A stretch of DNA of 44,283 bases from a virus (IMGVR_UViG_3300009421_000008:1-44283); one strand, 5' to 3'. Counted from the first letter of the stretch, positions 1 through 28,863 are shown. Numbers and translations: made by a program. The notes: generated from the sequence alone by a model not told the origin.

Positions 1-123
1 GACTCTTCCCAAGCTGACTGAAGGTCAGCGTGAAAATCGAAGCCAACTAGCAGATTGTGGGTCTGCTGATTCTCAGTTGATGCTCTATAAGAATCTGCCG
101 CAGTCTGACCAACAAGCCTGGCA
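1..123. repeat. Terminal direct repeat, copy 1 (identical to 44161..44283); assembly or circularisation overlap
   Basis: Base-by-base comparison: gactcttcccaagctgactg...aacaagcctggca occurs at both window ends (123/123 identical). Confidence 0.95.
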
Positions 124-2180
124 ACGACAGACGACGAAGCAGCGGCGGTCGCCAGGTTGTAGTGGAACCTGTTTCGCTCGCCACTCCATCGCCATGCGAC
201 ATTCATGACAGTGAGAATATTTCCATAGACTAAGTTGTCCGCGCCCATCCGAATCGAGATGTGCGATGTCTGACCGTCTTCAAACCAGTTGTAGCGGATG
301 ATGTTGGCGTCAGATTTAACGGTAATGATTTCGCCGTCCGCTCGACTATCGAAGTAGTTCCACTCAACAATCGCACCGGCTTGATCGTCAAGCGTTTCGC
401 TGATAGCGTGACCGTAACCTAAAGCAATAGGCGATCCAGAGTTGCCGCCAGGATTAGGCCCAGGTCTTACGAAGCTATTGTGATGATAGTGATTGCGCTT
501 TGTGACAGCTACAAACTCTGGCGTCAGAGGATTAGTGTCAGGCTGGATAAAGCAAGTACCGTCATTGTCAACGCAATTGTTGTTGGCAATCTCAGTATCG
601 TCACCATAAAAAGCGATACCGTAAGAAGTCATTGCGTCTATTCGGTTGCGAACGAACTTGCAGTGATTTCCTTCAAATCGAACTGAATGATGAAGCCCAC
701 CACAGCCATCCAGATCCATACCGCGCATGACAATGTAGTCAGGAAATATCCTAATATACATTGTGCCGGTGAACTTCACGCCCTCAAGTGTTTGAGGCAA
801 AACATATATCCGATTGGTTGCAGTCCCATCGGCACCATTACACACGACGTTACCCCAATCGGTGTAGGTGCCGTCCTGAACTCTGATGCAGCCACCTGGC
901 GCAATTGTCGAGAAAGCGGCTGCAAATTCCGATTCGTTAGTAACTAGAATTTCTTGGGAGAACGTTGCCGGAATCTCGTTGCCTGAATCGGCTTGAACGC
1001 CAAACAACTGGCGATAAACATCAAGCGGTTTCAGCACGACTTCTGTAAAAGTGGCCGCTTTGGTCGGGAGCCCTGGCAGCGAATGTACAGCTAAGCCGTC
1101 GCTTACCACTCGCTCAATCTGAGCGTCAGTCAAATGATCTGGCGTGTAAAGCATCCGCCGAATAGATAATCGATTACCTGAGTTTGCTGGTATTCCAAAT
1201 CGGAATGTAGACCAAACTGGCAAGGCTCCATCGGAGTCCTTTACCTCAACCGCTCCTGACCTCAGCAAAAAATCATCTGTTTTCAGCCTAAGCCCTATAA
1301 CCTCGCGCTGATCAGCAACTAGATTTGCGCTTGACAGGCTGGCTTGTGCCGCATTACCTGACTTTACATATAGATGTCGTTTGCTACTGACGGGGTATAA
1401 GATCAACTGATCTTGTGCAGCACCGTTGGCGCTATAGGCGTCCATGACTCTATCAAGAGTAGAAGTTGTAATCGTCCCAGCTTCCACTTCAAAGAAGAAC
1501 GTACCGCCAGCCGACTCATACCAGTCGCCGGGTAGTAGTGTAAACCGCTGCCCGCTGGCCGTTCCATCTAGCAAAGCGCCTTTATTGGTCTCATCAGGAA
1601 CCGGGAACCCGTCTGCATCTGTGTTGTCCCAATCGCTTGATGGCAATTCTCTACCGCCAACAATCGCCATACGTGACGGGCCAGCAACTGCTGTGTTGTT
1701 GCCTGCATAATCGCCAAACGCTGTAGAAGCGGTGTTGCCATTAAACGTTAAGTCAGGATGATCTGTAACGTCAGGGTGTCCAAAATCAAGCGCCAAGTCC
1801 CATGCGATCTGATTGACAGTAACGTCAACCTCCAGCGTTATTGAGTCGCCTTCACTTAATGTAGCTCGAACAACATAGCTGATGTCTCCAAGTAAATAGT
1901 CAACGCCAGCAGAGCTGTCAACCGTCACATCAGCAGTCGCGCCGTTGTCCGTCAGGTTGAATACAGCACCGCCCGTCTCCAGCGACCACCCCGTAACCGT
2001 CACGCCATTAGGCAGATTCCCTACGCTGTGCTTTGCAACCGCATCGCCTGACTCTGATAGCGCGGTGATGGGTTGCAGGTTGGCGGTGAGGATTGAAGGC
2101 AGCAATATAATTTCCTTGCGAAGCCTGAACCGAACATCTACTCCAACACCAACATCGATTCTGTTTGACACGCCAACCAT
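1..2180 (-). CDS. Tailspike-like polysaccharide lyase (PL6 / chondroitinase-B-like beta-helix), 5' portion. The ORF continues across the junction into 43869..44160, 823 aa in total.
   Basis: ATG at 2180 overlaps the upstream stop (TAATG). I checked every codon of this minus frame from 2180 to 1 and found no stop. N-terminal PL6-like signature EILVTNESEFAAAFSTIAPGGCIRVQDGTYTDWG (about 861-953). Core GEIITVKSDANIIRYNWFEDGQTSHISIRMGADNLVYGN (about 207-336) resembles the PL6 (x)KS..N.i..N.f...g.l.lRhG pattern. Missing from the ORF track because it has no stop inside the window's left edge. Confidence 0.7.
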   Translation of the reverse strand, partial: MVGVSNRIDVGVGVDVRFRLRKEIILLPSILTANLQPITALSESGDAVAKHSVGNLPNGVTVTGWSLETGGAVFNLTDNGATADVTVDSSAGVDYLLGDISYVVRATLSEGDSITLEVDVTVNQIAWDLALDFGHPDVTDHPDLTFNGNTASTAFGDYAGNNTAVAGPSRMAIVGGRELPSSDWDNTDADGFPVPDETNKGALLDGTASGQRFTLLPGDWYESAGGTFFFEVEAGTITTSTLDRVMDAYSANGAAQDQLILYPVSSKRHLYVKSGNAAQASLSSANLVADQREVIGLRLKTDDFLLRSGAVEVKDSDGALPVWSTFRFGIPANSGNRLSIRRMLYTPDHLTDAQIERVVSDGLAVHSLPGLPTKAATFTEVVLKPLDVYRQLFGVQADSGNEIPATFSQEILVTNESEFAAAFSTIAPGGCIRVQDGTYTDWGNVVCNGADGTATNRIYVLPQTLEGVKFTGTMYIRIFPDYIVMRGMDLDGCGGLHHSVRFEGNHCKFVRNRIDAMTSYGIAFYGDDTEIANNNCVDNDGTCFIQPDTNPLTPEFVAVTKRNHYHHNSFVRPGPNPGGNSGSPIALGYGHAISETLDDQAGAIVEWNYFDSRADGEIITVKSDANIIRYNWFEDGQTSHISIRMGADNLVYGNILTVMNVAWRWSGERNRFHYNLATAAASSSVVARLVGQTAADSYRASTENQQTHNLLVGFDFHADLQSAWEE

Positions 2181-2557
2181 TAATTCTGTCCTTTAATAGC
2201 AGAGCCCCAAGCACTGATCTTGCCGTCACTCACAACCAAAGTCACTTGAACAGACCAATCAGAAGTCTCACCGCCTATAATCTGTCTAGCGCGTATGGTA
2301 TGCGTACCTATGCTAACTGCCAATGAGTAGCCCCAATTTCCAGAGTTGTCCACAACGTTTGCATTCTTAATCAGTGCACCGTCGTATTCTAGCTCAATTA
2401 TGGCCCCCGGTGAACCATTTCCTTTGACCAGTATGGTCTGATTATCTAGAGCATCTCCTGACAATCCAGGAGGCAGTAGATCAATGCTAGTAATGCTAGG
2501 GGCCCAGGCATTGCCACCGTACTCATTCAATGCTGGGCTCCAGTCTTTAGTAGGCAT
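2180..2557 (-). CDS. Small Ig-like domain tail or fibre accessory protein
   Basis: 125 aa. The pattern ILVKGNGSPGAIIELEYDGALIKNANVVDNSGNWGYSLAVSIGTHTIRARQI is typical of bacterial Ig-like (Big) domains. It sits between two depolymerase-like genes. Confidence 0.5.
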   Translation of the reverse strand: MPTKDWSPALNEYGGNAWAPSITSIDLLPPGLSGDALDNQTILVKGNGSPGAIIELEYDGALIKNANVVDNSGNWGYSLAVSIGTHTIRARQIIGGETSDWSVQVTLVVSDGKISAWGSAIKGQN

Positions 2558-2565
2558 TTCGTCTC

Positions 2566-5127
2566 CTAAGCCTCGAGCAAAAGCCCGCCTTCGAACTCAA
2601 CCCATGCCCTGCCGTCAGATCTTATAACAGCCTGCCTGACAACGCGATCAATCACCTGGTTGCAGAACAACCCTGCTTGTGATAAAGTAACGTTTTCAGA
2701 AGGAGAACCATAAGTTTGCCTGCCGTTGCTTTTGCCGAATGTCCTCGTATGCGGCACATCATTGTAGTGCGTGATACCAACACACTTCTGGCGACTGGCG
2801 TTACCAATGGCTAGCAAAGTGGTTCTCTTCATGTTGCGAGCAAGAGTGTCGTACCCAGCCTGTCCTTGGTTATCGATAATCCAAGACCCAGTGCCATACT
2901 GGCCGTCCACACCTGTCGTTGCCTCGTGCCCAGTCTCGTTAGCGTGAATAATAATATCCGCAATTTCAGGCCTTCCAAGATGAACAGCGAGCCACTCGAG
3001 CTGGGCGCGATAGCCGTCAATTTCAAACTGCATTCTTGCCGGGTCGTAGTTATACATGTACGGGTGGAAGAACACAACATCGACGTGGTCGATACCGATT
3101 CCACCGGCTCCATCACTAGACAAAGCCCACGCTTGGAAAAACGAGTAAGCAGCGTTGGGGTTAGCAATAGTCTTACCTTGAGAATCGCCTTCCCAACCAC
3201 CGACAGAAACTTTAACGCCGGCCGGCACATTCTCCTTGCACACTCTGCAACCAATAGCTAGCTCGCTGAAAGTGTGTAAGTTAAACGCTCTGGGCGGGTT
3301 TCCAGAGTAGGGGTGGTCCCACCACCTTGATGTGCTGTTCGGTATTACGTCACCAAATTTCTGCTCATTACTATACTCAACCACAGGGTGGCTGTCTACA
3401 GTAAACCCAGCGCCAAACGGCTCTGCGCCAGGGCCATCTACGTCTTTGGGCCTGTAACACCACCTTATATACTCGGCAAGATACTCCCAATTTTCCGGTG
3501 GCATAGGCCCGTAAGGATATGAAGGCCAGCGACCAGCGCCGTGTATCTGCCCATACGAGTTTTCGTTGCCGTACCTGTTTCTAATTTCCTGTTGGTGCGC
3601 AGCCGATACACCCCATTTAGGAGTTAGATACGCAGCCAGAATTTTAGGGCAGCCTCCATTCATCGTCTTGCTTTCTTCTGCCCTGTCGTAATCGTAGTTA
3701 TGCCTACCAGCTTGCGCTATACGACCCCAAACAAAGCCGGCATCATCTAAGTTGCTAGCTGGGAAAGATCCTAGTATCCGAGCGTGAGGCAAAGAGAACC
3801 CAGGCTGCGTGACTGTTGCATACCGATGCCAGCCATTTCCTAGCGGACCGATCTTGTACGGGGTGTCGGTAGGAGACATAAGAACACGCACGGTGTCTGA
3901 CGGTTGGGTCGACGGCACGTAGTTAGGATCTGGGTCTACGTATCCTCCAAACGTTCCAGAGCCGTCTCCCGTGTTGTTTCCGCCGCCAGTGTTTGTATTC
4001 ACGTCGACAAATTGAACACGCTTAATCTTCCTGGGCCCGGGCACGTTGAATATTTGCCCGCTTCCAATTGTCTGGTTTGCTATTCTGTCAGTGGTATTGG
4101 TGTCTGACGTAATGACAACGTCGTAAGAATCTTCCGGTACATTCAGCTGAACAGACTGCCCGGTCAAAAGATCCAAGTATGATACAGACCCGGTCTGGTC
4201 TCTTCCAGACTCGTCGCCCGTGAAAAAGTCCATGCCCCAGACAGATATATCCAGCGAGTCTCCCGTCGCGGCTAGATCAAATGAAAACCAGTTGCTTGCT
4301 ATGTTTCCTACCGTATGAAACCTCTGCCAGTTCGGAGTAGCGGCCAGCACTTGATAGTTGCTGTCAGCTAAGCTTCTGAAGAACACATTTTGGTTAACGC
4401 CTGTATTGCTCTTGATCCAAATATGGTTGGTGTGCTGTCCAGGAGTAAGGCCGGACATTGCGTGTCTCAATCCCACATTTGCGTTACCCGCCGGTACAAC
4501 CATACGCGTAGCAGTTTGATCACCGTTAGGTGACTGCGAATAGTTCTCAGTAAGCGACGGAGCTCCGCCAAGATTTGCCCAAGCCGGAGAGAACCCTACC
4601 TTAGGCGCTGTTGTTACAAGCCCCGGTGTGTAAGCTGATGACGTAGTAAATCGATCGGGATCACTGATAGACGCACCAGGCGGTTCGACGCCCAGCGTGA
4701 AATCAAAGTCAGTGTATTTTGTAGTATCACCATCACCGCCACCGCCGGGATTAGTAGGAGCTTCCCCGCCGCCTGTAGGAGTTCCTACTCCATCTTGCAC
4801 AAACAACGGGCGGCTAGACATGATTGTCTTAACGCCAGAAGAGTCCAAGTGTTCTTCAACATACGTGATAGCTTTTAATTCATCCGCGGCCGTGTAGGTA
4901 TACGAGTCACCTATTTGCCCGGCGACTGTAAATAACCAGCGCCTCCAGTATTTAGTGACGCTCACGGAACCTGAGTAAATAGCATCAGCAGTCACTATAG
5001 CAGAACCCAACCCGTTGTCTTCAATAACTGGCCGGGCTATCATTCTAGGTCCTCTGTTTTCAGACGACGGCCTGCGAAGTATGTTAATTGATTTCAGACT
5101 AAATGTCGTCGGATCTGGTGTAGTCAT
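2566..5127 (-). CDS. Tail-associated glycoside hydrolase-like protein (clan GH-A TIM barrel, C-terminal half)
   Basis: 853 aa. Asn-Glu acid/base-like motif VVEYSNEQ (NE at 3364-3369). Nucleophile-like motif IIIHANETGHE (E at 2935-2937). The spacing fits a 4/7 (beta/alpha)8 hydrolase. The N-terminus has a Gly-rich linker, as in fibre and spike proteins. Confidence 0.5.
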   Translation of the reverse strand: MTTPDPTTFSLKSINILRRPSSENRGPRMIARPVIEDNGLGSAIVTADAIYSGSVSVTKYWRRWLFTVAGQIGDSYTYTAADELKAITYVEEHLDSSGVKTIMSSRPLFVQDGVGTPTGGGEAPTNPGGGGDGDTTKYTDFDFTLGVEPPGASISDPDRFTTSSAYTPGLVTTAPKVGFSPAWANLGGAPSLTENYSQSPNGDQTATRMVVPAGNANVGLRHAMSGLTPGQHTNHIWIKSNTGVNQNVFFRSLADSNYQVLAATPNWQRFHTVGNIASNWFSFDLAATGDSLDISVWGMDFFTGDESGRDQTGSVSYLDLLTGQSVQLNVPEDSYDVVITSDTNTTDRIANQTIGSGQIFNVPGPRKIKRVQFVDVNTNTGGGNNTGDGSGTFGGYVDPDPNYVPSTQPSDTVRVLMSPTDTPYKIGPLGNGWHRYATVTQPGFSLPHARILGSFPASNLDDAGFVWGRIAQAGRHNYDYDRAEESKTMNGGCPKILAAYLTPKWGVSAAHQQEIRNRYGNENSYGQIHGAGRWPSYPYGPMPPENWEYLAEYIRWCYRPKDVDGPGAEPFGAGFTVDSHPVVEYSNEQKFGDVIPNSTSRWWDHPYSGNPPRAFNLHTFSELAIGCRVCKENVPAGVKVSVGGWEGDSQGKTIANPNAAYSFFQAWALSSDGAGGIGIDHVDVVFFHPYMYNYDPARMQFEIDGYRAQLEWLAVHLGRPEIADIIIHANETGHEATTGVDGQYGTGSWIIDNQGQAGYDTLARNMKRTTLLAIGNASRQKCVGITHYNDVPHTRTFGKSNGRQTYGSPSENVTLSQAGLFCNQVIDRVVRQAVIRSDGRAWVEFEGGLLLEA

Positions 5128-5139
5128 TATTAACCCAGG

Positions 5140-8100
5140 TTAAAGTGGTGTAGGTAAAAAAGTCGGCATAGGAGGCGGATTATCAATGAGCTGCTGAACA
5201 CTCATAACCTTGTCCGTACCTACTACTCCCCAAGGCCAATTAGGCCCGTCAGAAGCGCTGTATCCATCTGCCCAAGGCGGCCTTGGACCAACGATAGCTT
5301 TTGTGGGACCAACACTCGTTGCGGTGAAAAACTTGGGGACGGGCGTAAGCGTTTTATATCGTCCATGCCCACCGTCCATAGCTCTGAACGGATAATCTGA
5401 CGGTGGTCGTTGGTTGCCCGGTTTGCTCGATTGGTATTCGTACAGGTCAAAACCTTGGCAGGCCTGCCATTTGACAAGATCTTTATCATTGCCCTCAACC
5501 CAAGCAACAAATCTGAAGTGCCAGCCTTTGAAGCCTGACATAAGCGCCCTGTTCTGGAATGTATAGAAGGGATCTGTCCAAAGTTCTAGCGGCCTATCCT
5601 GGCTAACCTTAAGGAGTGTCAATTCGTTGCCTCGTGCTGGTTGTGGACCTTGGCCGTTAATGTCTGGGCCTTCGTCGTTTAGATCACTGAACCCGCCGCC
5701 GTTAACGTAGCCTTTGCCTCTCTTATCAAAGAAAACTTTGACCCATTCGTTCTGGTTATTGAGGATGAATCCTTCCATGTAGCCCATAACAATAATGGCG
5801 TCACTATGTTGGTTACCACTTTGTTCCCAAAACCAGCTCCAAGGAACGGCAGTATCACAAATGGTATGCAGCGTGCCACCTTGTCTTCCGTACACGGTCG
5901 GGCCGACGCACATTTGTGTTAACGCCGCAGCGGTAGGCGCGTAGGCACTGGCTTTAATGCTTGCCCCAGAAAACCCGGATCCAGTTCTTGAACCCACTCC
6001 GTCGTTATCAAACTGCATATCACCAACAATAGTATCCAACCATTCAGCTTCTGTCATAATCCCATCGTTGGTAGGTGGTGTGACAACTGTTGTTTCAAAG
6101 GGTTCTTCTTCAAATGGTTCTTGGAATCCGTCATTGCCATTGGCAATAGCGAGATTCATAAGAACTGTCATATCCTCGAACGCAATGTTATCACCTGAAT
6201 GAACAAGACGGCCGTCAAAATACCATCTAATTCGGTTGTATTCCCACAAGCACTGTATGTAGTGCTCGTCTTCTATGCCGCCACCAGCTGGGAATTCTAT
6301 TAACTCACTCGGCTGTCTGGTATTAGCTGAGCTATAAACCTGCTCATTCTCATCTGGCAAATGCGTGTTAAGACTTACCTTTCCTCTTTCTTCTGGGCGC
6401 GTGCTAGCGGTTTCAATAATATCTATTTCGGCACTTTCAAGCCCGCTTTCTGGAAGCATCCAAAGAGCAAACCAAACTCCTGGACCCGACATACCAGAAA
6501 CACGAAAACCAAATGACCCATATTTGGTCGAAAACAATCCTCTGAGAGAAAGCAACCCTGACAACCAGGCCAATCCGCTTCTTTTCCATTGGCCAGATTT
6601 AGGGGACGACGTCGAGTACATATACCAAAACGTATTGTCTTCTGCAACTCTTACCCTGTGCTGCCAACCTCTCTGAGAATTAGGCGGGGCAAACCCAGTT
6701 AACGATTGCCGCTCTAAATGAGTCGCGTACGTATGGATAACAGACGTGTCGTTTATGTACAACCTTTCTTGAAGTGTTGCTCTCCTTGCAGAAATATTCA
6801 ACCCTTCAGAATCAAACGTGAACGGGTCGTGTTGTATCTTCGTAGGTGACGGATTAGGAGTGTTCCCCCTGTAGTCAGGTCCTGACACGTAGTCTTGAGC
6901 TTCTTCATTAATGACTGTTGGATACCATCTGGGCTTGTCAATGAACTCAACGCCTCCTGAGGACACCGGCCCTATAATTCCTCTGTTCTGATTTTCAGTG
7001 AAATCCCTGTAGAACAATTCGGCAAAAATGTCGTTGACTGGTATTTGATCCTCATCGGAGCCATTTCCAACGCCTCCTTGTATCTCCATAACAGGAGACC
7101 CAGAACCAGCATTACCACCCATCTTTCCAACTAACCAATTTCCTACGGACACGTCAGTGAAATTGAAAAGTACATTTGGTCCTGCTGAAGGATCTATCGT
7201 CACTGAGCATGCGCCCGTCAATCTATTTCTTACAACAGAAATTTCTACTTCTGTTATTGCGGCGTCTAAGCTAACCCCCGATTCCTCAATAGATTCAGAC
7301 GCCGCGCCGCCGTTATTGACGTACTTAACTACTTGTGTCTGCCACGAATCTGTGTTGCTACCCCGACTTATTTTAATCGATAGCCCAGAAGCATTTGGCG
7401 CCCCGTTGTACAGGCTAAACTCGGCGTTAGTTGCCTCAAATTGCAACTCCATCCAAAATGCGTTGTTGTTAATAGACGACCATTTAATTTTGTGGTTGAA
7501 CGAATCAACGTCTAACTCTGCAGATACGTGGGCAGCGCCGTAATTCGTATTGTTGATCATGGCAAGACCACCACCGGCTAACCTCTTAATATTCTCTGAC
7601 CGATACTTCAAGCCGGCGGGCGCAGACGGTTGCGGAGGTTGATCGTTGACGTTATCACTGGCTAGAATTTCGCTACTAAACTCTTCTACAATCTCAGCTG
7701 CTGGCAAATCTGCAGACTCAAGTATCACCTCAGATGAGTAATAGCTAACACCTCCGACAACATCTTCGGCTTTCAACCGGCCTTTGAAATCAGCGATAGT
7801 CCCAATGAATGTTCTATCGGTTGGATACATGCGTTTGCCGTTTACAACCCACCAAGACTTTTCAATGGGGGACCTTAGCCCGGGAGTGTAAGACATTTGG
7901 CTACGAACTTTGCCGGCCCCAGAAATAGTAGGAGCCAGAGGATCGGACGAAACACCGCCGCCGGTACCGTTGACGTCAAATGGCGGCAGCTCTATAACTC
8001 TCGGGTCCCGAGCAATTCTAGTAAACGTTTCAACGCCGCCGGGAAGCGCGACCACGTACATCCTAATTTCATCGCCGGTTTGTAGCACCGGCCCGCCGGT

Positions 8101-8595
8101 TACTGGGAGCTCAACGAATATAACAGCTTCTTGTTGGCCGGTGTCTGGGTTTAGTTCAAGAGTGTCTTGAAATTTAGCGCCAGTTATTCTTGCAATGAGG
8201 TCTCCAGCCATGAAGGTGCCGTCGTCTGGAGGATACCAAATCTGAACTTCACAGTCATCAACTCCTTTTGCCGACGCGTCTGTGAACATTTTTCCGTATA
8301 GGCCAAAAAGCTGCTGTTCAACGACATTGGAATAGCCAGACACTCCGCTTGAATTGGAGGCATTAACTCGGAATTGATAAATTGTCTTTGGTAGAAGCAG
8401 GTTTATGGACGCAAACGCAAAATTAGCGTCCACTGCAACAGGAACCCAAGATGACCAGTTTCCAGTAGATGTTTTATACCTACGCTCAAGCGTGAACCCG
8501 GTTTCGTCTGACGAATTATCCTGCCAAGTCAAATTTACACTTTGGCTTGAATAGCTGGAAATTGCTAGATTAGAAGGGGCTAAGGGAACTGGCAT
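5140..8595 (-). CDS. Large tail fibre/spike protein with an N-terminal FN3 domain and an internal GH16 (laminarinase/agarase-type) domain
   Basis: 1151 aa. FN3: APSNLAISSYSSQSVNLTWQDNSSDETGFTLERR...YQFRVNASNSSG. GH16 catalytic motif EIDIIE (6412-6429) preceded by GVWFALWMLPE and followed by WYFDGRLV. Confidence 0.7.
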   Translation of the reverse strand: MPVPLAPSNLAISSYSSQSVNLTWQDNSSDETGFTLERRYKTSTGNWSSWVPVAVDANFAFASINLLLPKTIYQFRVNASNSSGVSGYSNVVEQQLFGLYGKMFTDASAKGVDDCEVQIWYPPDDGTFMAGDLIARITGAKFQDTLELNPDTGQQEAVIFVELPVTGGPVLQTGDEIRMYVVALPGGVETFTRIARDPRVIELPPFDVNGTGGGVSSDPLAPTISGAGKVRSQMSYTPGLRSPIEKSWWVVNGKRMYPTDRTFIGTIADFKGRLKAEDVVGGVSYYSSEVILESADLPAAEIVEEFSSEILASDNVNDQPPQPSAPAGLKYRSENIKRLAGGGLAMINNTNYGAAHVSAELDVDSFNHKIKWSSINNNAFWMELQFEATNAEFSLYNGAPNASGLSIKISRGSNTDSWQTQVVKYVNNGGAASESIEESGVSLDAAITEVEISVVRNRLTGACSVTIDPSAGPNVLFNFTDVSVGNWLVGKMGGNAGSGSPVMEIQGGVGNGSDEDQIPVNDIFAELFYRDFTENQNRGIIGPVSSGGVEFIDKPRWYPTVINEEAQDYVSGPDYRGNTPNPSPTKIQHDPFTFDSEGLNISARRATLQERLYINDTSVIHTYATHLERQSLTGFAPPNSQRGWQHRVRVAEDNTFWYMYSTSSPKSGQWKRSGLAWLSGLLSLRGLFSTKYGSFGFRVSGMSGPGVWFALWMLPESGLESAEIDIIETASTRPEERGKVSLNTHLPDENEQVYSSANTRQPSELIEFPAGGGIEDEHYIQCLWEYNRIRWYFDGRLVHSGDNIAFEDMTVLMNLAIANGNDGFQEPFEEEPFETTVVTPPTNDGIMTEAEWLDTIVGDMQFDNDGVGSRTGSGFSGASIKASAYAPTAAALTQMCVGPTVYGRQGGTLHTICDTAVPWSWFWEQSGNQHSDAIIVMGYMEGFILNNQNEWVKVFFDKRGKGYVNGGGFSDLNDEGPDINGQGPQPARGNELTLLKVSQDRPLELWTDPFYTFQNRALMSGFKGWHFRFVAWVEGNDKDLVKWQACQGFDLYEYQSSKPGNQRPPSDYPFRAMDGGHGRYKTLTPVPKFFTATSVGPTKAIVGPRPPWADGYSASDGPNWPWGVVGTDKVMSVQQLIDNPPPMPTFLPTPL

Positions 8596-11500
8596 TATGT
8601 TATCTCAATTAAAATGGAACTGGATGAAATGTTGGAAGCCGCTGCAGCACCGCTTGCGTAAACAAATACTTCTAGCAACGTTTCGCCCGTCGCGTTAGCG
8701 ATAAGATCCTGAATATTTGTTTCAGATCCAGTTCGACGAGTATTGGCGATTGGTGCGCCGTCGTACAACGCGTCAAACCTTATCTTTTGCTCGTTGCTTC
8801 CGGCACCTAGTTTTACAGTCACGTTAATGGCGCCAATTGCAGCTGATGAAGTTGTTATTGACCCATTTATTGTGGTAGTCAAAGTAACGCGCTGCCCGAC
8901 CGTCAGATTTATCGTTTTTGACAACACCTTATTGACAAAATTAGCGTGAATAGTATCACTGCTATTTATTGGTATTATTTCCCGGTACGTTACAAGTGGC
9001 GGCCCGTCTTGCCATGCTGGCGCAAGCTTTTGAGTTTTATCAGCGATTGACAACATGGGCTGAGCGAAATCTATTTGCGAAAATCCTGCACCCGGCCCAC
9101 CAATTCCTCCTTTGACTAAAGAAACTAATGCGTCAAAAGTATTGGGAGGAGCCGTAAAAAATCCGTGCATAGTTCTTGGTGTGGACCCGTCTACAGGATC
9201 TGACAAATTGCCCAACAACTTGTCTGTTCTGAATATTTCCAGACGATTACCTTCTTTGTCAAACGGGTCTATTTGCATGTAACCAGTCGAATACCGATTG
9301 GCTGATTTGAATTGGACACAATATCTGACTCCCGGCTCCAACCTAACTTTTCTGTTGTGTATGAAAAAGGTTGCCTCATCAGTTGGCGTGTCTTGTCTTA
9401 GCGTCACAGGAGCCGGCAAAGATTCTGCGACTGGGTCGCCTTGGGGTCTGACCAGTTTATTGGCCGGCGAAGAACCGGCTGAAAAAATCCTCCATCCAAT
9501 AGCATTATCTGCGAAAGAAGCGTTTTGCAATCTGTTGCCCGTAAATAAATTCCCAGATTGGTTGCTTGGTATATCTGATGAGACACTGTGAGTTACGTCC
9601 ACTTGATCTGATTTTGTTCCAACGCCGCTGTAAGCTATTGCGTAGACATTAATAAGCTGTCCGGGAACAACGGGCCTGATCAAATATTCAACCGTGTCAG
9701 CAGATACTTTTTCTCGCCTGTACGTCGTCTCGGAAGAATACTTCCACCAAATCTCAATGTAACCACCGAGTAATATGGTTGACGACGTGATTGCATCCCA
9801 AGAGCATTCTACGTGAGCGGCAACTGTACCGTCGTCCAAAACAGTGTAACTAGAAGCATTGGAATTTACTTCGAACCTCGTTATAGCAGGCACGAATCTA
9901 GGATCGGGCAGCTTAGTATTGGGCGCAGGATCCGGTGTTTTCAAATCGTCGAAAAACTCGCTGTAAATCTCTGGCGCATCTTCTTGGGCATCGACGTATA
10001 CGGCCATTTCCTCGTAAGAGAATCTAACCGAATTTACACGGAACACTTTTTCGTCAAACCCAGCGTACGGCAACGTAAATCTAAAAGTGTCAAACGGCCG
10101 CAACCTCAACGCTTTGAGACCGAACGGAAAATTACCTCTGACAGCTTGCCTAGATTTAGCCACGTGCAGTTTTGCAAGGCGCTGAGCAACAAGAGCTGAT
10201 TTAACAAAAGGAAAATTAAGCGGTTTCCTAAACGTACGGCCGTTGTCTTCCGCAACGTAAGCAAGAGCCTTATACTCAGGATAGCTATTAGACCTAAACC
10301 CAATGAGTTCGTCTATGAAAGTTCCGCGAACGGTATTGACAAGATCTACGCGCTCCATCCTAGAGCTCATCGTAATAGAGCCTTCGGCGAGATCGTTTTG
10401 ATCTAGCGACATTTCGGGCGCCATGTACTGCGACGACTTCAGAGTCCATTTCCCACCCGACCAAATAAGCCCACCTAGATTACTAGTTAGCAGCTGTTCG
10501 AGCGACGCACTAGGGGCCTCATCAGCGTAAACCATACCGTTGATGGTGAATCTGTTTTGTCCGTTATTAACGCCGTTTTCTAAAATGGGTTGTTGACTCA
10601 AATTTGCTTCGGCTGAGAAGTTGATTTCATCGATGTCTGCGCGATTGACTGAGTACCCGTAATCATGCATTAAAAAATCTGAAATAACAAGGGCCGCGTT
10701 GTCAGTTGACACGTAATTACTGTTTCTGAAATCTAAGACGTATCTGCCTTTGAGTTTTGCGGCGATGCCGGGCAATCCTGTACTGCCGAAAATATCTTGG
10801 TCAAATTCTATTCGTATGTGTATCCGAGCAACCCCATAACCTTTTTGGCTAGAGGTCCAAACGCCTGGAAAATCTTGCTCAAGTGTTACGTCTCGAAGAT
10901 TGTCACCTTCTTCGCGGCCTGTGTATTTGAATATTCTTACAAGCGGTTTACCGTCGTCGTAAACGTAGGTAATGACTAGTTTTTTGCCTTTGGCCCTATC
11001 GTTGACGAATATGATGCCTCTATCTGTGTTGATATAATCTGTGTTTCTGATAAAATGTTCGACAACCGGTGTATCTGCTTCACCATGGACTACGTAAGAC
11101 GTACTAACAGACTCGACTCGCTGGTATCTAATGGGGTCTAGTAATTCAACCTCACCACCTCTGCCCGGGCCGGTCACTTCTATTGACTTGTGCTTAAGCT
11201 CTCGCTTCCAAAATCGAGATCCTTTTTGGACAAATCCAAATTCGTCCAAACCACCAATTGATTCGTTGTCGAACAAAACATCGTCGATGCTGGTGCAAGC
11301 GTCTGATAGCGTTATAACTAAATGCAGATATTTATTGAACTCACCAGATGGTCGTATAAAAGTCAAATTGCCGCCGGCCATGGCGGTGCCATATGGTATT
11401 CTTCTAGATGCTACTGACGACGTAGTGGTAATTTCTCTGTCTTGAAGGCTGCTGTTGTAGTTAGCCCTGGCAAGTCTAGATGCGCGCCGCGAGCTAGACA

Positions 11501-11651
11501 CTCCGTAAGCTGTTGCAGCAGCTGACGCGTAAGTAGCAAAAGCGGCCTGTCCTGTAAACGAAGACGCACTCAAACCGCCTGTAAGATAAGCAACATAGAG
11601 ACCAGCTGCAGCGGTCGCCAATCCTACGAACTCATCCTTAAATTTTCCCAC
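8595..11651 (-). CDS. Host-specificity / central tail fibre protein (lambda gpJ / RcGTA g15-like)
   Basis: 1018 aa, immediately downstream of the NlpC/P60-like gene. N-terminal RRIPYGTAMAGGNLTFI and central FDTFRFTLPYAGFDEKVFRVNSVRFS segments resemble gpJ-family proteins. Confidence 0.7.
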   Translation of the reverse strand: MGKFKDEFVGLATAAAGLYVAYLTGGLSASSFTGQAAFATYASAAATAYGVSSSRRASRLARANYNSSLQDREITTTSSVASRRIPYGTAMAGGNLTFIRPSGEFNKYLHLVITLSDACTSIDDVLFDNESIGGLDEFGFVQKGSRFWKRELKHKSIEVTGPGRGGEVELLDPIRYQRVESVSTSYVVHGEADTPVVEHFIRNTDYINTDRGIIFVNDRAKGKKLVITYVYDDGKPLVRIFKYTGREEGDNLRDVTLEQDFPGVWTSSQKGYGVARIHIRIEFDQDIFGSTGLPGIAAKLKGRYVLDFRNSNYVSTDNAALVISDFLMHDYGYSVNRADIDEINFSAEANLSQQPILENGVNNGQNRFTINGMVYADEAPSASLEQLLTSNLGGLIWSGGKWTLKSSQYMAPEMSLDQNDLAEGSITMSSRMERVDLVNTVRGTFIDELIGFRSNSYPEYKALAYVAEDNGRTFRKPLNFPFVKSALVAQRLAKLHVAKSRQAVRGNFPFGLKALRLRPFDTFRFTLPYAGFDEKVFRVNSVRFSYEEMAVYVDAQEDAPEIYSEFFDDLKTPDPAPNTKLPDPRFVPAITRFEVNSNASSYTVLDDGTVAAHVECSWDAITSSTILLGGYIEIWWKYSSETTYRREKVSADTVEYLIRPVVPGQLINVYAIAYSGVGTKSDQVDVTHSVSSDIPSNQSGNLFTGNRLQNASFADNAIGWRIFSAGSSPANKLVRPQGDPVAESLPAPVTLRQDTPTDEATFFIHNRKVRLEPGVRYCVQFKSANRYSTGYMQIDPFDKEGNRLEIFRTDKLLGNLSDPVDGSTPRTMHGFFTAPPNTFDALVSLVKGGIGGPGAGFSQIDFAQPMLSIADKTQKLAPAWQDGPPLVTYREIIPINSSDTIHANFVNKVLSKTINLTVGQRVTLTTTINGSITTSSAAIGAINVTVKLGAGSNEQKIRFDALYDGAPIANTRRTGSETNIQDLIANATGETLLEVFVYASGAAAASNISSSSILIEIT

Positions 11652-12056
11652 TCAAACTCTCCAAGCTTTGGTAGCACGCGCTCTAGAAATAAAGACCAGG
11701 CCAGTTTCACCTGGGCCCGCAATTCTTGTTCCTAAGAAGACCCCCAAGGAATTTCGCCCGTCTATCTCAAGCATTGCTATGTCGCCCGTTCCTGCGTACG
11801 CGGGGTCTATTTCTTCTGCCCATTGCATAACTACCGTAATGTCATTGTCAACTTCTGCCAACCGCTGCGCCGCTTCTTTAGTGTTGGACCACGGCTCAAC
11901 TCCGATGTCTTGGTTAACACCCGTTATTGCTTTAGCGCTGCCAATGGCGAATAAAACACAGTCTTGCTTGCCGTACGCAAATGGAATGCTGCTACACTTA
12001 GCTAGATAACTGTCAAGCAGCTTAGGCCAATTAGAAAATCTCACTACTTCCTCCAA
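11652..12056 (-). CDS. Phage NlpC/P60-like tail peptidase (RcGTA g14-like)
   Basis: About 130 aa with a GKQDCVLFA Cys motif, in the position between the g13-like and J-like genes. The likely true start is GTG at 12044 (GGAGG N5 GTG, overlapping the upstream stop) rather than TTG at 12056. Confidence 0.55.
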   Translation of the reverse strand: MEEVVRFSNWPKLLDSYLAKCSSIPFAYGKQDCVLFAIGSAKAITGVNQDIGVEPWSNTKEAAQRLAEVDNDITVVMQWAEEIDPAYAGTGDIAMLEIDGRNSLGVFLGTRIAGPGETGLVFISRARATKAWRV

Positions 12057-12628
12057 AAATCAGCGGTTGGCCACTTTGTGGTTGTTACTTGATCAGCAGA
12101 CTGCGGCCCGTGTTTGAAGAAATCATCTCCCGGATATTTGTCTTGCTGGTCGGCATCATTGTAGACTGATCCATCTGGTGTAGACCACCTTGCAGCGTGC
12201 GACTCGGATGCCAATGAAACAACGGCTTGGTTGTCAGACACTTGGATTTTAGCAGTATCACAAAACCCTCTGTAAAGTTCCATGGGAGTATCGATGATCT
12301 GACCACTTTCGTCAAACAATCCAAAATAAATTGTAAGCGGCCTATCCTGTAAATTTTCGCGGAGCACAAAAGAGACCGTGGCCTCGTCCATACCGGACAA
12401 GATAACCTCAGCTCCTTCGGGGGCCAAATCATTGGTCTCTTGCAAATCATTGAGGGCAAGCAGATTACCCGCTCCTCTCCAATTAACGCCGCGAAACTCT
12501 CTGTCGGCGCCCAATGTGGTGTATCTTAGGGCAAGATCGTTATCAAGGAGAACTTCCACGGCCACAAAGGCATATAAGGTCTTGTCAGTTTCAAACGAAT
12601 CCACAATATTTTGAAGCGCGTCAAGCAT
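12044..12628 (-). CDS. Minor tail protein (RcGTA g13 / DUF2163-like position)
   Basis: Preferred start is ATG at 12628 (GGAG N7 ATG; ATGCTTGA overlap with the upstream stop). The track's TTG at 12661 is an alternative. The call rests mainly on synteny with GTA-type tail modules. Confidence 0.5.
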   Translation of the reverse strand: MLDALQNIVDSFETDKTLYAFVAVEVLLDNDLALRYTTLGADREFRGVNWRGAGNLLALNDLQETNDLAPEGAEVILSGMDEATVSFVLRENLQDRPLTIYFGLFDESGQIIDTPMELYRGFCDTAKIQVSDNQAVVSLASESHAARWSTPDGSVYNDADQQDKYPGDDFFKHGPQSADQVTTTKWPTADFWRK

Positions 12629-13235
12629 TAAATATCTCCACCCATCTAACGGCAAATTCAAGGCCTGAACGCCGATTAGATGGGATCATAACCAATGGTT
12701 CTGCGGATACAAAACGGGCCGTAGGACGACTTGAAATGATAGGGCTAGCGGTAAACGACTCCCTTACTTTCGGCGCGACTCGGGCGAATCCTGACCCATC
12801 TGACTGCAAATTAGCGGCCTCTTTAACCATGAAGAGGTGCTCTCCGGCAGAAAACATGTCTCCTTTGAGCAAAGTGGAGAACGGCGGGCCGTTTGTGATA
12901 TACAACTGGTCCGAATCGTTTGTGGTTTGCGCTCTAGCAAGAGAGTTGGTTAAAGCCACAAAAGTTCCGCGCGGATTTTCACGGTTGGGGTGCCACATCA
13001 TAACGTCGTTTGCCTGGCCCTCGACCTCAGCAAAAAAGGCTTCTCGCTCAGCAAGATCTGGGAGGCTGCACGCGTTGTACTGCATATCGCAAACCCACCG
13101 GCTACCGGGCAGAACCACTCGCCTGAATTCAGCTCCCAACGACGCTTGTATATTCACAAGCACGTTGGATCTAAGACCGAAGCTAATTTCTTCCGGCCAC
13201 AACGCCCGGGTTGTAGGGTAGAGTATTTGGCTCAT
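12621..13235 (-). CDS. Distal tail / minor tail protein (RcGTA g12-like position)
   Basis: 204 aa. ATGA overlap with the tape-measure stop. The call rests on position directly after the tape measure. Confidence 0.5.
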   Translation of the reverse strand: MSQILYPTTRALWPEEISFGLRSNVLVNIQASLGAEFRRVVLPGSRWVCDMQYNACSLPDLAEREAFFAEVEGQANDVMMWHPNRENPRGTFVALTNSLARAQTTNDSDQLYITNGPPFSTLLKGDMFSAGEHLFMVKEAANLQSDGSGFARVAPKVRESFTASPIISSRPTARFVSAEPLVMIPSNRRSGLEFAVRWVEIFNA

Positions 13236-15157
13236 GCTAGTACCTTGCCTCGTTTTTCAGCGTCTTGCAAGCCCTGAACTGTGGCCCGAGATGATCTCTT
13301 CACTGCGGCATTAACCTCTTGTATAGTCACCCCGTTACCTGTTACTTTGAGGTCGTTGTTGATCGTAACACCTGCACCAGAACCGGTCGCTTGAGCAGAC
13401 AAAGACGCTTTAGAAGATGGCGTGAACGTGTTGTTTCTATTTTCTACGGGCGCAGGAGGTTGCTGCGGTGTGCCCGTACTACCACCAATTCCAGCAGCTT
13501 GGGCTAACGGCGCAAACAAATTTTGGCGAAGAAACAATTTGGCGTAATCTTGGAAAAGAGCTTTGATTACGTCACTTAGTTTTTCTGCCTCAAAAATTGC
13601 GTCTTCAGCGCCCGACTGAAATGAGGCCCAAAAATCAGCAGAAAGTTCTTTGGTCTTATCGAGGCTTTCACCGAATTTACTGACGGCTTTATCCCCGGTT
13701 GAAAATGAATTAATAGCCCTCTGAACCATATCATCTGAAATTGCGCCGCCGGCACGCTTCGCGATGTCTTCGATCTCTTGTATTTGTCTTGCAATACTCG
13801 CAAAAGGATCCGCCAAATCTTTGACTTTCTGGATATCCGCTTGCAATTGGTCAGAGGCCTTTTTAGTAGAGCTAGCTATCAACTCGTCTAATTGGCGCTG
13901 CGCTTCTTTTTCAGTATTGAGCTTTTTCTGTAAATCTATTCTAGTTGCAAGGTTGATAGCTTCTTTGGCTTCACTCTCAGAAACGCTGGAAGATTTTCTA
14001 GAAAGCTCCAAACCTATTTTTTGAACCTCGTTGAGGTTTTGAGTAGCCTCCAGTCGCCTGCTCAATTGGGCGATAAGCTTTTCACCGTCACTAAGTTTTT
14101 TGGCGTTTGCGGCTTGTTCCGCGGAATCTTCACCGGCTGGGTTGAACCCTTGTGGTCTTTGCTTGCGCTGCGGAAACGATTCGTTAACAGTCCCTTTCAG
14201 CGCTTGTACGCGATCATTGATAGCTTCGTTCTGGGCCTGCAAAATAGCAAGCTCATCTTTCAGTCTACGTATGCGCTGTGGGCTGGTCTCACCATCTAAC
14301 TTAGCCTGAACATCTGCGATCTCTTGGAGCTTTTCAATGCCGGCTTGCGCCGCCCTCTCAAGCTCATTAGAACTAAATACGGCCTCGATCGTTTCAATGA
14401 AGCTTTTCCCGGATTTTCTAGTGGCGATGAACGCGTCACTCAGATCGGCTAGAGTGTTGATAAGCGGGCCGGCGAGGTAGACTTGAAGCGCACCGGCAGC
14501 TTTGCCGATTCTGTTCATGTTATCATTAAGCCGCTCAGCAGCTTGCGCTGCATCTGTGCCAATGATTAAACCTAGCGCTTCGGCCTCTTCCGTCATTTCG
14601 CGGATTCCGGCAGCGCCTGAATTCAAAAGCGGAACTAAATCTGCACCTGCCCGCCCAAACAGCTGCATAGCGATGGCGGTTTTCCTGGCGCCGTCTGGAA
14701 GATCTTTGAACCGGTCGGCAAGAACCTTCATTAGGTCAGATGCGTTATCGAATTTCGATACGTCGATGTTAAGTTTGCCGAAGGCTATGACGGCTTCACC
14801 GGTGCCGTCCTTAGCCTCTTCAAGCCTACGTCCTAAGTTTGCCAGGCCTTTGTCAAGAGTGCCTACACCCACGCCTGCAAAATCCGCGGCGTACCTAAGT
14901 CCAGAAAGCTGCTCTACCGTAACGCCTACGCCCTGCGCTTTTTTCGCCAGATCGTCAAATTGCGCCGCAACGTTGGTTAACGAGCGGGTAAGGGCCCCGA
15001 ATACAGCGGCGCCGCCTATAAGAGTTAGCGCACTTCCAAGACCTTTGAGTGCTTTAGAAACTCCACCAACCATTCTAGACGTGTCAGATTCAATTTTTTT
15101 AAGTGAATCACTGAATTCGGCGAACCTGGCTTTGATATCAATTCTAAGTTCTGGCAT
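13232..15157 (-). CDS. Tail tape measure protein
   Basis: 641 aa, Ala/Leu/Gln-rich and coiled-coil-like. It directly follows the frameshifted chaperone pair. Confidence 0.85.
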   Translation of the reverse strand: MPELRIDIKARFAEFSDSLKKIESDTSRMVGGVSKALKGLGSALTLIGGAAVFGALTRSLTNVAAQFDDLAKKAQGVGVTVEQLSGLRYAADFAGVGVGTLDKGLANLGRRLEEAKDGTGEAVIAFGKLNIDVSKFDNASDLMKVLADRFKDLPDGARKTAIAMQLFGRAGADLVPLLNSGAAGIREMTEEAEALGLIIGTDAAQAAERLNDNMNRIGKAAGALQVYLAGPLINTLADLSDAFIATRKSGKSFIETIEAVFSSNELERAAQAGIEKLQEIADVQAKLDGETSPQRIRRLKDELAILQAQNEAINDRVQALKGTVNESFPQRKQRPQGFNPAGEDSAEQAANAKKLSDGEKLIAQLSRRLEATQNLNEVQKIGLELSRKSSSVSESEAKEAINLATRIDLQKKLNTEKEAQRQLDELIASSTKKASDQLQADIQKVKDLADPFASIARQIQEIEDIAKRAGGAISDDMVQRAINSFSTGDKAVSKFGESLDKTKELSADFWASFQSGAEDAIFEAEKLSDVIKALFQDYAKLFLRQNLFAPLAQAAGIGGSTGTPQQPPAPVENRNNTFTPSSKASLSAQATGSGAGVTINNDLKVTGNGVTIQEVNAAVKRSSRATVQGLQDAEKRGKVLA

Positions 15158-25603: not shown

Positions 25604-25605
25604 TC

Positions 25606-27675: not shown

Positions 27676-27676
27676 T

Positions 27677-28159: not shown

Positions 28160-28160
28160 T

Positions 28161-28370: not shown

Positions 28371-28371
28371 C

Positions 28372-28814: not shown

Positions 28815-28863
28815 TTTGAAAGCCTATTCAGAGGCTGTTACCCAACCAATGGAGAAATACCAA

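Follow-up and report, generated by a model that had tools for sequence, protein, structure and literature searches.

The DNA analysed here (the window, 44,283 nucleotides in length) holds a circularly assembled siphovirus genome of 44,160 nt. Its first and last 123 nt are identical (44161-44283 repeat 1-123), which points to an assembly overlap of the circular 44,160-nt genome. On the minus strand, a lambda-J-like gene is followed by four genes, encoding proteins that we call A (1151 residues), B (853 residues), C (125 residues) and D (823 residues). The gene order is TMP, J, A, B, C, D and lysis genes, with the tape measure, Dit and J genes upstream of A to D. Within the J-A-B-C-D block, neighbouring genes overlap by 1 nt, as the J-like gene and A do, or are separated by gaps of 8-12 nt.

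The initial annotation had given the three large proteins these same lengths and had placed them downstream of a J-like protein; all four reading frames are indeed found on the minus strand, and the J-like gene (8595-11651) abuts A. It had put their extent at 1-8595, about 8.6 kb and some 20% of the genome. The share stands, as A to D in fact span 8,887 nt (20.1% of the genome), but the final 292 nt of D were left out: the gene continues from nt 1 over the circular junction and was rebuilt across the 123-nt overlap. In L003, an independent k141 assembly of 44,301 nt (44,160 + 141), the D gene is identical and uninterrupted, encoding 823 residues. The features are as follows.

8595..11651, minus strand: J-like central tail fibre or tip attachment protein, 1018 residues (phrog_5616)
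5140..8595, minus strand: protein A, 1151 residues, open reading frame with fn3 and GH16 Pfam matches
8314..8580, minus strand: FN3 domain of A, residues 6-94 (PF00041)
6118..6828, minus strand: GH16 catalytic domain of A, residues 590-826 approximately, Pfam core 688-802 (PF00722)
6412..6429, minus strand: ExDxxE motif of A, Glu723-Ile-Asp725-Ile-Ile-Glu728, residues 723-728, read from the sequence
5143..6090, minus strand: C-terminal domain of A, residues 836-1151
2566..5127, minus strand: protein B, 853 residues, open reading frame with AlphaFold model
4003..5127, minus strand: conserved N-terminal module of B, residues 1-375
4003-4515, minus strand: beta-sandwich in B, residues 205-375 approximately (Foldseek)
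2569..3945, minus strand: (beta/alpha)8 domain of B, residues 395-853 (AlphaFold and Foldseek)
3364..3369, minus strand: Asn587-Glu588 of B, predicted acid/base Glu after Asn
2935..2937, minus strand: Glu731 of B (in HANETGHE), predicted nucleophile
2180..2557, minus strand: protein C, 125 residues
1..2180, minus strand: protein D, first 727 of 823 codons
43869..44160, minus strand: protein D, last 96 codons and stop
213..944, minus strand: PL6 (chondroitinase B-like) domain of D, residues 413-656 (PF14592 Chondroitinas_B)

The J-like protein matches phrog_5616, annotated as 'tail fiber protein', with an E-value of 7e-53, and is 24-32% identical (tblastn) to lambda-type J and Roseobacter phage tail proteins. 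The PF13550 domain (Phage-tail_3) is found in its homologs from related phages.

Domains and catalytic residues of the four proteins

Protein A starts with an FN3 domain, followed by a beta-rich region of about 500 residues without domain match, the GH16 domain and a C-terminal domain of 316 residues. The FN3 domain scores 31.6 bits against PF00041 (cut-off 25 bits) and has FN3 and titin matches in the PDB; the GH16 domain scores 31.7 bits against Glyco_hydro_16, PF00722 (cut-off 22). A profile built from four A-family homologs finds 34 GH16 entries in the PDB, the best being the laminarinases 4dfs and 3azx (E = 3e-9, or 3.3e-9 unrounded), although the alignment to known enzymes spans only about 150 residues of A, approximately 674-825. 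In the profile alignment, the EIDIIE sequence of A is in register with GEIDIME of the Thermotoga laminarinase (4dfs/3azx). Glu723, Asp725 and Glu728 are invariant in all four homologs, and a GxWPAxW-like strand is also present. The top NCBIfam match is the endo-1,3-1,4-beta-glycanase EglC (E = 1.2e-11), with 44 bits against a family cut-off of 700. The AlphaFold model of A has a mean pLDDT of 36.6, with values below 35 across the GH16 region and of 65-82 in the FN3 part only. The C-terminal domain, 57-60% identical in P0005 and P0006, has no PDB match by profile and no Pfam match.

Protein B consists of a conserved N-terminal module, a CBM-like beta-sandwich and a (beta/alpha)8 domain. The 853-residue start is backed by the conservation of residues 1-28 in P0002 and P0003. 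Residues 1-204 are modelled with a pLDDT below 50, and residues 181-304 give a weak match to NCBIfam GTA_spike_fiber (24 bits, cut-off 36). The beta-sandwich resembles CBM4 (3p6b), 1ulo and a CBM22-GH10 enzyme; this enzyme is the top Foldseek match of B and shares its domain order. Residues 395-853 are modelled as eight strand-helix units (AlphaFold, DSSP) with a pLDDT mostly of 75-95, the alignment behind the model containing only 11 sequences. In the PDB, Foldseek matches this barrel to GH10, GH2, GH51, GH5, GH42, GH35, GH26 and GH44 enzymes, with E-values from 2e-6 to 3e-3 and modest TM-scores (at most 0.47 on the target).

Structure prediction, proposed earlier as a check and run on B, thus gives a fold-level likeness to clan GH-A enzymes, and the topology of the Asn-Glu and Glu motifs agrees with the clan GH-A guess made from the sequence. 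The tripeptide ETG occurs once in B (residue 731) and the dipeptide NE three times (521, 587 and 730); family conservation singles out Asn587-Glu588 and Glu731. Asn587-Glu588 lies just past strand beta4 (residues 582-585), His688-x-Tyr690 after beta6 and Glu731 at the end of beta7 (residues 726-732). Arg450, Glu584, Asn587, Glu588, His688, Tyr690 and Glu731 are all invariant in the 11-sequence alignment of the domain. The family is rare: a search of 1.84 billion proteins gives 14 representatives (at 50% identity). For B and ten homologs, no Pfam family was found at E-values up to 0.01, and no PDB chain was found for B at E-values up to 10 in sequence or profile searches. Judged against Pfam and the PDB, the catalytic domain is predicted from the model to represent a clan GH-A-like family that is as yet uncharacterised; it may already be listed in CAZy, in a family that has neither a Pfam entry nor a structure.

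In the relatives as well, protein C always comes directly after B (45-47% identity), and both of its termini are invariant among homologs. All four homologs match Big_6 and Big_3_5 below threshold (best E-value 7.9e-4, for Big_6), and a profile search gives no PDB match. A small Ig-like protein between B and D had been described before; the gene and its place are confirmed, and the sub-threshold matches lend weak support to its Ig-like character. C is a small conserved protein that may be Ig-like, and it is a candidate adaptor linking B and the next fibre.

In protein D, 410 residues without domain match precede the PL6 domain and about 165 follow it. The domain scores 41.4 bits against PF14592 (cut-off 24), and a Beta_helix Pfam match of 16 bits is sub-threshold. 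The PDB matches are weak, with E-values from 1.7e-3 to 9e-3, among them the PL6 enzyme 6qps (1.7e-3) and chondroitinase B (6.5e-3). In the HMMER alignment with 1dbg, Asn580, Asp615, Glu617, Lys622 and Arg644 fall on Asn213, Glu243, Glu245, Lys250 and Arg271. The first three of these chondroitinase B residues are reported to make up the Ca2+ site, with Lys250 as the base and Arg271 as the acid (Michel et al. 2004). By alignment, Asn580, Asp615 and Glu617 of D would form the Ca2+ site, with Lys622 (nt 315-317) as base and Arg644 as acid; one Ca2+ ligand is altered conservatively, from Glu to Asp (Asp615). No relatives of D were detected in related phages, GenBank phages or IMG/VR, and it has no recognisable N-terminal anchor in common with other fibres.

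The initial annotation had read the 1151-residue protein as FN3 plus GH16 with a canonical EIDIIE motif, and both Pfam scores above threshold and the alignment of the motif to laminarinases agree with this. Its PL6-like lyase also appears correct, given a Pfam score above cut-off and catalytic positions kept in the alignment. With the modelled barrel of B being clan GH-A-like, the three proteins are predicted to carry three different carbohydrate-active domains, as it had proposed.

Such domains may also serve for binding only. CBM-like or inactivated enzyme domains do so in many phage fibres, and the enzyme folds of these receptor-binding proteins might be lectin-like adhesins that keep the phage on surface glycans but leave these uncut. 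The CBM4/22-like sandwich of B and its weak match to GTA head-spike fibres would fit this, as would the FN3 domain of A and the putatively Ig-like C (such modules being typically adhesive), the partial alignment of the GH16 domain to known enzymes and the Asp replacing a Ca2+-binding Glu in D. However, all defining catalytic residues of GH16, clan GH-A and PL6 are present, and those of A and B are invariant though the homologs are 24-65% identical; adhesin derivatives usually lose them. We therefore regard a purely adhesive role as improbable.

Conserved scaffold and exchanged heads in related phages

Across the relatives, the J-like protein, A and C are kept; B retains its N-terminal part but has its catalytic domain replaced, as are the genes downstream of C. 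Protein A is 48-55% identical in three relatives. In L001, L002 and L006, residues 1-375 of B and protein C are conserved, with different B C-termini and downstream genes; the N-termini of P0002 and P0003 are 61-62% identical to B and their C-termini unrelated. One of the downstream genes of the relatives encodes a pectate-lyase-like beta-helix. B thus has the design of a tailspike: its gene lies in the tail module, its putative N-terminal attachment part is conserved and its C-terminal head can be exchanged. In L005, P0007 is an in-frame fusion of residues 1-826 of A and 2-853 of B, in which the whole of B replaces the C-terminal domain of A, suggesting that A and B share one physical assembly. 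A, B and D have no match in 50,697 deposited phage genomes (tblastn in the case of A).

A constant A with a swapped B head and D slot is a pattern typical of specificity-determining tailspike modules. The initial annotation had proposed either a successive breakdown of a complex capsule, EPS or biofilm matrix or a broader host range. The enzymes might be used in parallel, each opening a host or serotype of its own, in the manner of the branched multi-tailspike phages CBA120, K1-5 and PhiK64-1, with the array as a host-range device. This has in its favour that otherwise similar phages have swapped the B catalytic domain and the contents of the D slot, like serotype-specific tailspikes, and that the predicted chemistries differ, two being hydrolases and one a lyase requiring uronic acid. 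The constancy of A in all relatives speaks more for a common substrate than for a switch of host range. Parallel use, which differs from the reading we prefer below solely in the logic of use, is possible but the less probable of the two.

Outside the lineage, the domain of B terminates large proteins in two other phage types, a P22-like prophage (in a Burkholderiaceae MAG) and a phage region of the SU10-adaptor type. The three cellular homologs examined (P0139, P0140 and P0134) are Tat-signal proteins of about 400 residues, all encoded within Wzx/Wzy polysaccharide-synthesis clusters containing a flippase, Wzy polymerase, glycosyltransferases, a deacetylase and Wzz. The algal substrates suggested before (laminarin, agar and alginate) are consequently not favoured for B.

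Environmental or algal glycans such as laminarin and alginate, or a biofilm matrix, would be the targets if the proteins were soluble enzymes released at lysis or products of auxiliary metabolic genes, serving progeny escape or host feeding rather than forming part of the virion. Laminarinases are the best structural relatives of the GH16 domain of A, PL6 includes alginate lyases of the 6qps type and D adjoins the lysis cassette. One B-domain homolog is assigned to an uncultured member of Paraglaciecola, a degrader of polysaccharides in the sea; however, its own locus is a phage structural region. The genes described here lie within the tail operon, coupled directly to J, and encode large multidomain proteins whose non-catalytic N-termini are common to relatives and whose heads are swapped. 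A is fused to B in one relative, and A, B and D show no sign of the signal peptides that the cellular homologs have. A role away from the virion thus seems unlikely.

Proposed role at the tail tip

The reading we favour, with a probability of about 0.65, is that A, B and D, together with C, make up a modular array of polysaccharide depolymerases that the virion carries on its siphovirus tail; we infer that A, B and D are present in the virion and enzymatically active on polysaccharide. The array would be a distal host-recognition module, in which a scaffold of the J-like protein, A, the B N-terminus and C bears exchangeable polysaccharide-degrading heads. The GH16 domain of A is predicted to act as a retaining endo-beta-glycanase, of the type seen in laminarinases or rhizobial EPS glycanases. 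B would combine a carbohydrate-binding beta-sandwich with a retaining (beta/alpha)8 hydrolase, using Glu588 as acid/base and Glu731 as nucleophile, and D would be a PL6 lyase that depends on Ca2+ and cleaves a polymer with uronic acids by beta-elimination. At host contact, the enzymes would bind and cut capsule, exopolysaccharide or O-antigen layers, clearing the way for the tail tip to the outer membrane; there, the J-like protein would commit the phage to infection. A would be constant in the lineage, the B head and D being strain- or serotype-specific parts gained by module exchange.

Comparison with known systems

Protein A shares the ExDxxE motif and the GxWPAxW-like strand with GH16 laminarinases and the rhizobial enzymes ExoK, ExsH and EglC. 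It differs from these in its length of 1151 residues and in having the GH16 domain between an FN3-led region and a 316-residue C-terminal domain. It may also be likened to the glycanase/laminarinase predicted in the baseplate cluster of the Sinorhizobium phages PhiM9 and PhiM12; the PhiM9_121 product, a predicted glycanase/laminarinase resembling host ExsH, is encoded among baseplate and neck structural genes (PMC4621102).

With clan GH-A (GH5, GH10, GH26, GH39 and GH51, among others), B has in common the barrel, the Asn-Glu after beta4, the His-x-Tyr after beta6 and the Glu ending beta7; unlike the described families of the clan, its own is rare and without Pfam or PDB sequence or profile match. 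PslG (GH39) is an EPS-locus glycanase of this clan, and the B family resembles PslG-type glycanases in that its cellular members are secreted and encoded in polysaccharide-synthesis loci. D resembles the PL6 chondroitinase B (1dbg/1ofl) and alginate lyases (6qps) in matching PF14592 and in having Ca2+ ligands, a Lys base and an Arg acid at the aligned positions. It departs from chondroitinase B in having Asp for one Ca2+-binding Glu, and in the 410 residues before and about 165 after the PL6 domain.

Multi-depolymerase phages such as PhiK64-1 of Klebsiella, K1-5/SP6 of E. coli and CBA120 of Salmonella and E. coli carry branched sets of tailspikes or fibres. The locus described here resembles them in its side-by-side receptor-binding proteins, predicted to degrade polysaccharide, with conserved N-terminal attachment parts, exchangeable catalytic heads and a small adaptor-type protein in between. 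In those phages, nearly all of the enzymes are right-handed beta-helices that form trimers, whereas in this locus D alone is predicted to have a beta-helix, and the carrier is a lambda-J-type siphovirus tail. Among the depolymerase folds detected in deposited phages, 85.8% are beta-helices and 1.0% TIM barrels, the jelly-roll of GH16 being outside the folds screened in that survey (DepoScope preprint, doi 10.1101/2024.01.15.575807). The three-enzyme module appears to be an unusual form of a known phage route through bacterial slime layers.

Genome organisation and the tail module

The first 123 nt of the window recur exactly as nt 44161-44283, and this terminal identity makes the unique sequence a circle of 44,160 nt. 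A second, independent assembly of the same phage (44,301 nt, k=141) yields the same 44,160-nt unit. The genome is that of a complete HK97-type siphovirus: the minus strand carries the genes for TerL, portal, capsid, tail tube and tape measure, and genes for replication and nucleotide metabolism make up an arm on the plus strand. The sign of the GC skew flips near 25 kb, the meeting point of the two divergent arms, and no tRNAs were found in the genome. The closest TerL match reaches 59% and the closest capsid protein match 46%; these similarities would loosely connect the phage to phages of Proteobacteria and cyanobacteria. A Megablast search with 25 kb gave zero matches among deposited phages, and proteins A, B and D gave none in 50,697 deposited phage genomes (tblastn for A and B).

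The replication arm (25600-36378, plus strand) encodes a DUF3854/DUF5906/VapE-like primase-helicase-type protein (25600-27675), a DUF1643 protein (27677-28159), a family A DNA polymerase (31976-33916), a PD-(D/E)XK nuclease (33913-34656) and a SNF2 helicase (34900-36378), all on the plus strand. A further plus-strand cluster (37925-40936) contains a SAM-methyltransferase (37925-38692), a thymidylate-synthase-like protein (39646-40449), a dCMP deaminase (40388-40936) and, by the annotation of the second assembly (L003), a PRA-PH/MazG-like gene; DNA base modification or nucleotide salvage is a possible function of this cluster. The tail genes follow each other on the minus strand.

Tail genes of the phage, with positions in the window and strand
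13232-15157, minus: tape measure
12621-13235, minus: Dit-like protein
12044-12661, minus: tail protein
11652-12056, minus: DUF6950 protein
8595-11651, minus: J-like protein (phrog_5616, E=7e-53)
5140-8595, minus: protein A, 1151 aa
2566-5127, minus: protein B, 853 aa
2180-2557, minus: protein C, 125 aa
2180 down to nt 1, then 44160-43869, minus: protein D, 823 aa

Genes A to D span 8,887 nt, or 20.1% of the genome. The initial annotation had described three carbohydrate-active domains in consecutive tail proteins, an observation that is confirmed overall; its ORF sizes are all correct, and so are its coordinates, except that the wrapped 292 nt of D had been missed. The independent assembly has the gene for D uninterrupted and with identical sequence, which rules out that its passage across the junction is an assembly artefact. 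Lysis-type genes, including an M15 peptidase (42426-42830), lie downstream of the tail module, and beyond them is a staphylococcal-nuclease-like gene (41118-41516, minus strand; PF00565, 30.8 bits).

The GH16 protein A and the PL6 protein D

Protein A contains Pfam domains fn3 (aa 6-94) and Glyco_hydro_16 (aa 688-802), each above the gathering score, with the EIDIIE motif at aa 723-728. FN3-only matches dominated the homolog search with the full-length protein, leaving only three true homologs (P0005, P0006 and P0007; 48-55% identity) among 5.8 billion clustered proteins. None of the three varies at E723, D725 or E728. A viral-contig scan for more relatives returned nothing, and the 80 loci obtained in a metagenome scan all align to the N-terminal FN3 region only. 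A profile made from the four GH16 regions retrieves 34 PDB sequences, all GH16, the best being Thermotoga laminarinases (E=3e-9); 'saEIDIvE' is aligned on their 'cGEIDIME', and 'GpGvWlaaWl' on 'GkGiWpalWm'. The top NCBIfam match, the rhizobial endo-1,3-1,4-beta-glycanase EglC (E=1e-11), is far under the equivalog cut-off. Sequence and catalytic motif thus support A as a predicted GH16 member. Searches with aa 96-590 and the C-terminal 316 aa gave no usable match, and the AlphaFold model of A (pLDDT 36.6, four-sequence alignment) is usable for the FN3 domain only.

In protein D, aa 413-656 match the Pfam family Chondroitinas_B (PL6) with 41.4 bits (cut-off 24), and the PDB matches are the PL6 lyase 6qps and chondroitinase B. 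Residues N580, D615, E617, K622 and R644 align on N213, E243, E245, K250 and R271 of 1dbg, which are reportedly the Ca2+ ligands, Brønsted base and acid of chondroitinase B (Michel et al. 2004). The first 410 and last ~165 residues gave no usable match in searches, and no homologs of D were found in the related phages, GenBank phages or IMG/VR.

Protein B and the relatives of its catalytic domain

As a whole, protein B has no sequence match in Pfam, PHROG or the PDB. Its residues 1-375 share 61-62% identity with the N-termini of the proteins occupying the same position in two related phages, P0002 (L001, 10001-13321) and P0003 (L002, 9349-11424), the C-termini of which are unrelated to that of B. 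These two proteins have a different C-terminal module in common, without a Pfam match, which is presumably another exchangeable head. Public gene calls place the start of B 28 codons downstream, giving a protein of 825 aa (the first 28 codons are at 5044-5127). Conservation with P0002 and P0003 begins at residue 1-2 and covers residues 1-28, and for this reason the 853-aa start is preferred.

Searches with the N-terminus of B gave no usable match, and a BFVD fold search with B returned only beta-sandwich-driven matches to assorted tail proteins. The region from about aa 205 to 375 has Foldseek matches to CBM4/CBM22-type sandwiches. Residues 181-304 (4216-4587) give a sub-threshold match to NCBIfam 'GTA_spike_fiber' (24 bits, cut-off 36), and DUF6950 and PF13550-type proteins are also present in the tail module; together, these matches hint at a kinship with tail and fibre parts of alphaproteobacterial phages and gene transfer agents.

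With aa 395-853 as the query, an exhaustive HMMER scan recovered only 14 proteins from 1.84 billion representatives. Pfam domains were absent from the 10 homologs scanned, and a profile of the family drew a blank in the PDB although E-values up to 10 were allowed; judged against Pfam and the PDB, the catalytic family is apparently undescribed. Eight residues are invariant in the family: R450, E584, N587, E588, H688, Y690, E731 and G733. The AlphaFold model (11-sequence alignment) has pLDDT values of 75-95 across most of aa 400-853 and contains eight strand-helix units, with the Asn-Glu pair directly after strand 582-585, the HxY motif after strand 684-687 and E731 ending strand 726-732. Clan GH-A, the 4/7 superfamily, is defined by an Asn-Glu after strand 4 and a Glu at the end of strand 7. 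Of the catalytic-type motifs proposed for B in the initial annotation, NE occurs three times, N587-E588 being the conserved pair, and ETG starts with the family-invariant E731. Foldseek matches in the PDB are to GH10, GH2, GH51, GH5, GH42, GH35, GH26 and GH44 (E 2e-6 to 3e-3), the multidomain query keeping the TM-scores modest; the GH10 match carries a CBM22, in the same domain order as B. Tail proteins such as these might be adhesins that bind polysaccharide only, but the conservation of the catalytic residues disfavours this, and we favour enzymes.

Four cellular homologs of the domain (P0134, P0138, P0139 and P0140) are 403-424 aa long, occur as stand-alone proteins and carry twin-arginine-type signal sequences. 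Where the genomic context was looked up (three of three), the cellular homologs lie inside Wzx/Wzy-type polysaccharide synthesis loci, flanked by two GT2 genes and with Polysacc_synt flippase, Wzy_C polymerase, polysaccharide deacetylase, GT4, Bac_transf, Wzz and sugar epimerase genes as neighbours. Bacteria house glycanases that trim their own exopolysaccharide in such loci, for example ExoK and PslG. The core of GT2, homolog of the B domain and GT2 is conserved in L088, L089, L092 and L093, and the polysaccharide deacetylase comes next in the first three of these polysaccharide loci, which suggests that the natural substrate of the family is a partly deacetylated exopolysaccharide. Laminarin or alginate as primary targets are less likely for B, given the EPS-locus context of its homologs.

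In a Burkholderiaceae MAG, a prophage protein of 1308 aa that adjoins a P22-type portal ends in the domain found in B, and so does a 616-aa protein attributed to an uncultured Paraglaciecola and encoded in a phage structural region that also has an SU10-type adaptor. The domain would thus be a mobile depolymerase head akin to host EPS-processing enzymes, present in at least three phage architectures.

Exchange of heads, fibre assembly and known systems

Four related phage loci (L001, L002, L005 and L006) keep the backbone of TMP, Dit, tail protein, DUF6950, J and A. In L001, L002 and L006 the N-terminal part of B and protein C are kept as separate, adjacent genes, and variation is found in the C-terminal head of B and in the genes after C.

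Genes following C in the related loci
L001: a 140-aa protein and a 509-aa pectate-lyase-like beta-helix protein
L002: four proteins without assignment
L006: four proteins without assignment

The copies of C in these relatives are 45-47% identical to C, with invariant N- and C-terminal stretches, and all four copies match the Ig-like models Big_6 and Big_3_5 below threshold; C is a candidate adaptor, conserved and probably Ig-like. Across the module (1-11651) the GC content rises, with values of 0.458 for J, 0.471 for C, 0.476 for A, 0.497 for the N-terminal part of B, 0.502 for D and 0.518 for the catalytic head of B; the related phages have 54-59% GC and this genome 48.9%. The slightly higher values of the B head and D, compared with J and A, are a weak hint that these may have been acquired from elsewhere.

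In L005, a single gene (P0007, 10001-15088) encodes a 1695-aa protein in which A(1-826) is joined in frame to B(2-853), omitting the C-terminal 316-aa domain of A; the contig stops 36 nt after the gene, and this apparent fusion comes from the contig of that one relative. As a 'Rosetta stone' fusion, it suggests that A and B may be parts of one fibre, and that the N-terminus of B may normally dock on the C-terminal domain of A. Such docking, if true, would make the array a branched scaffold into which depolymerases plug. The alternative that these are soluble or auxiliary enzymes acting on algal glycans is disfavoured by the operon position of the genes, the conservation of their non-catalytic parts and the A-B fusion.

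The best-supported reading is that A, B and D would form a virion-borne, modular array of predicted depolymerases. A would be a lineage-constant GH16 glycanase, B an exchangeable CBM plus GH-A-type hydrolase and D an exchangeable PL6 lyase; together they would remove polysaccharide from the surface and so open the way to the membrane for the J-type tip. The swap pattern favours the head of B and D as the specificity determinants. The interpretation in the initial annotation is supported in part: it holds for the three carbohydrate-active domains, and either of its functional alternatives, sequential degradation of a complex matrix or a broadened host range, may apply. A more far-reaching proposal, to which we give somewhat less than even odds, is that the B domain represents a new clan GH-A family from EPS loci, captured by at least three phage lineages and combined with plug-in fibre assembly. 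Its cellular members would be glycanases that are exported by the Tat route and belong to Wzx/Wzy loci for exopolysaccharide synthesis, and its putative captors may be unrelated tailed-phage lineages: the J-type siphovirus described here, a P22-like prophage and a phage with the SU10 type of adaptor.

The Wzx/Wzy link offers a route to substrate assignment for the B domain, whose likely substrate is the polysaccharide that these loci produce, and the domain could yield new enzymes against exopolysaccharides and biofilms. The A-B fusion provides a testable model of fibre assembly. None of this alters the general understanding of capsule penetration by phages, and phages with multiple depolymerases and exchangeable heads are well known. 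Knowledge of phage depolymerases, and the tools for predicting them, rest overwhelmingly on beta-helix tailspikes from phages that infect a small number of pathogens. One siphovirus tail with a GH16 jelly-roll, a TIM-barrel hydrolase of an apparently undescribed family and a PL6 lyase, all predicted, would widen the known fold repertoire, with predicted catalytic heads swapped on a conserved scaffold. In Sinorhizobium phages, predicted GH16-type glycanases are encoded in structural clusters (PMC4621102). Among the depolymerase folds that one survey detected in deposited phages, 85.8% are beta-helices and only 1.0% TIM-barrels, jelly-rolls not having been screened (doi 10.1101/2024.01.15.575807). 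The strategy is ordinary; the mix of folds is unusual.
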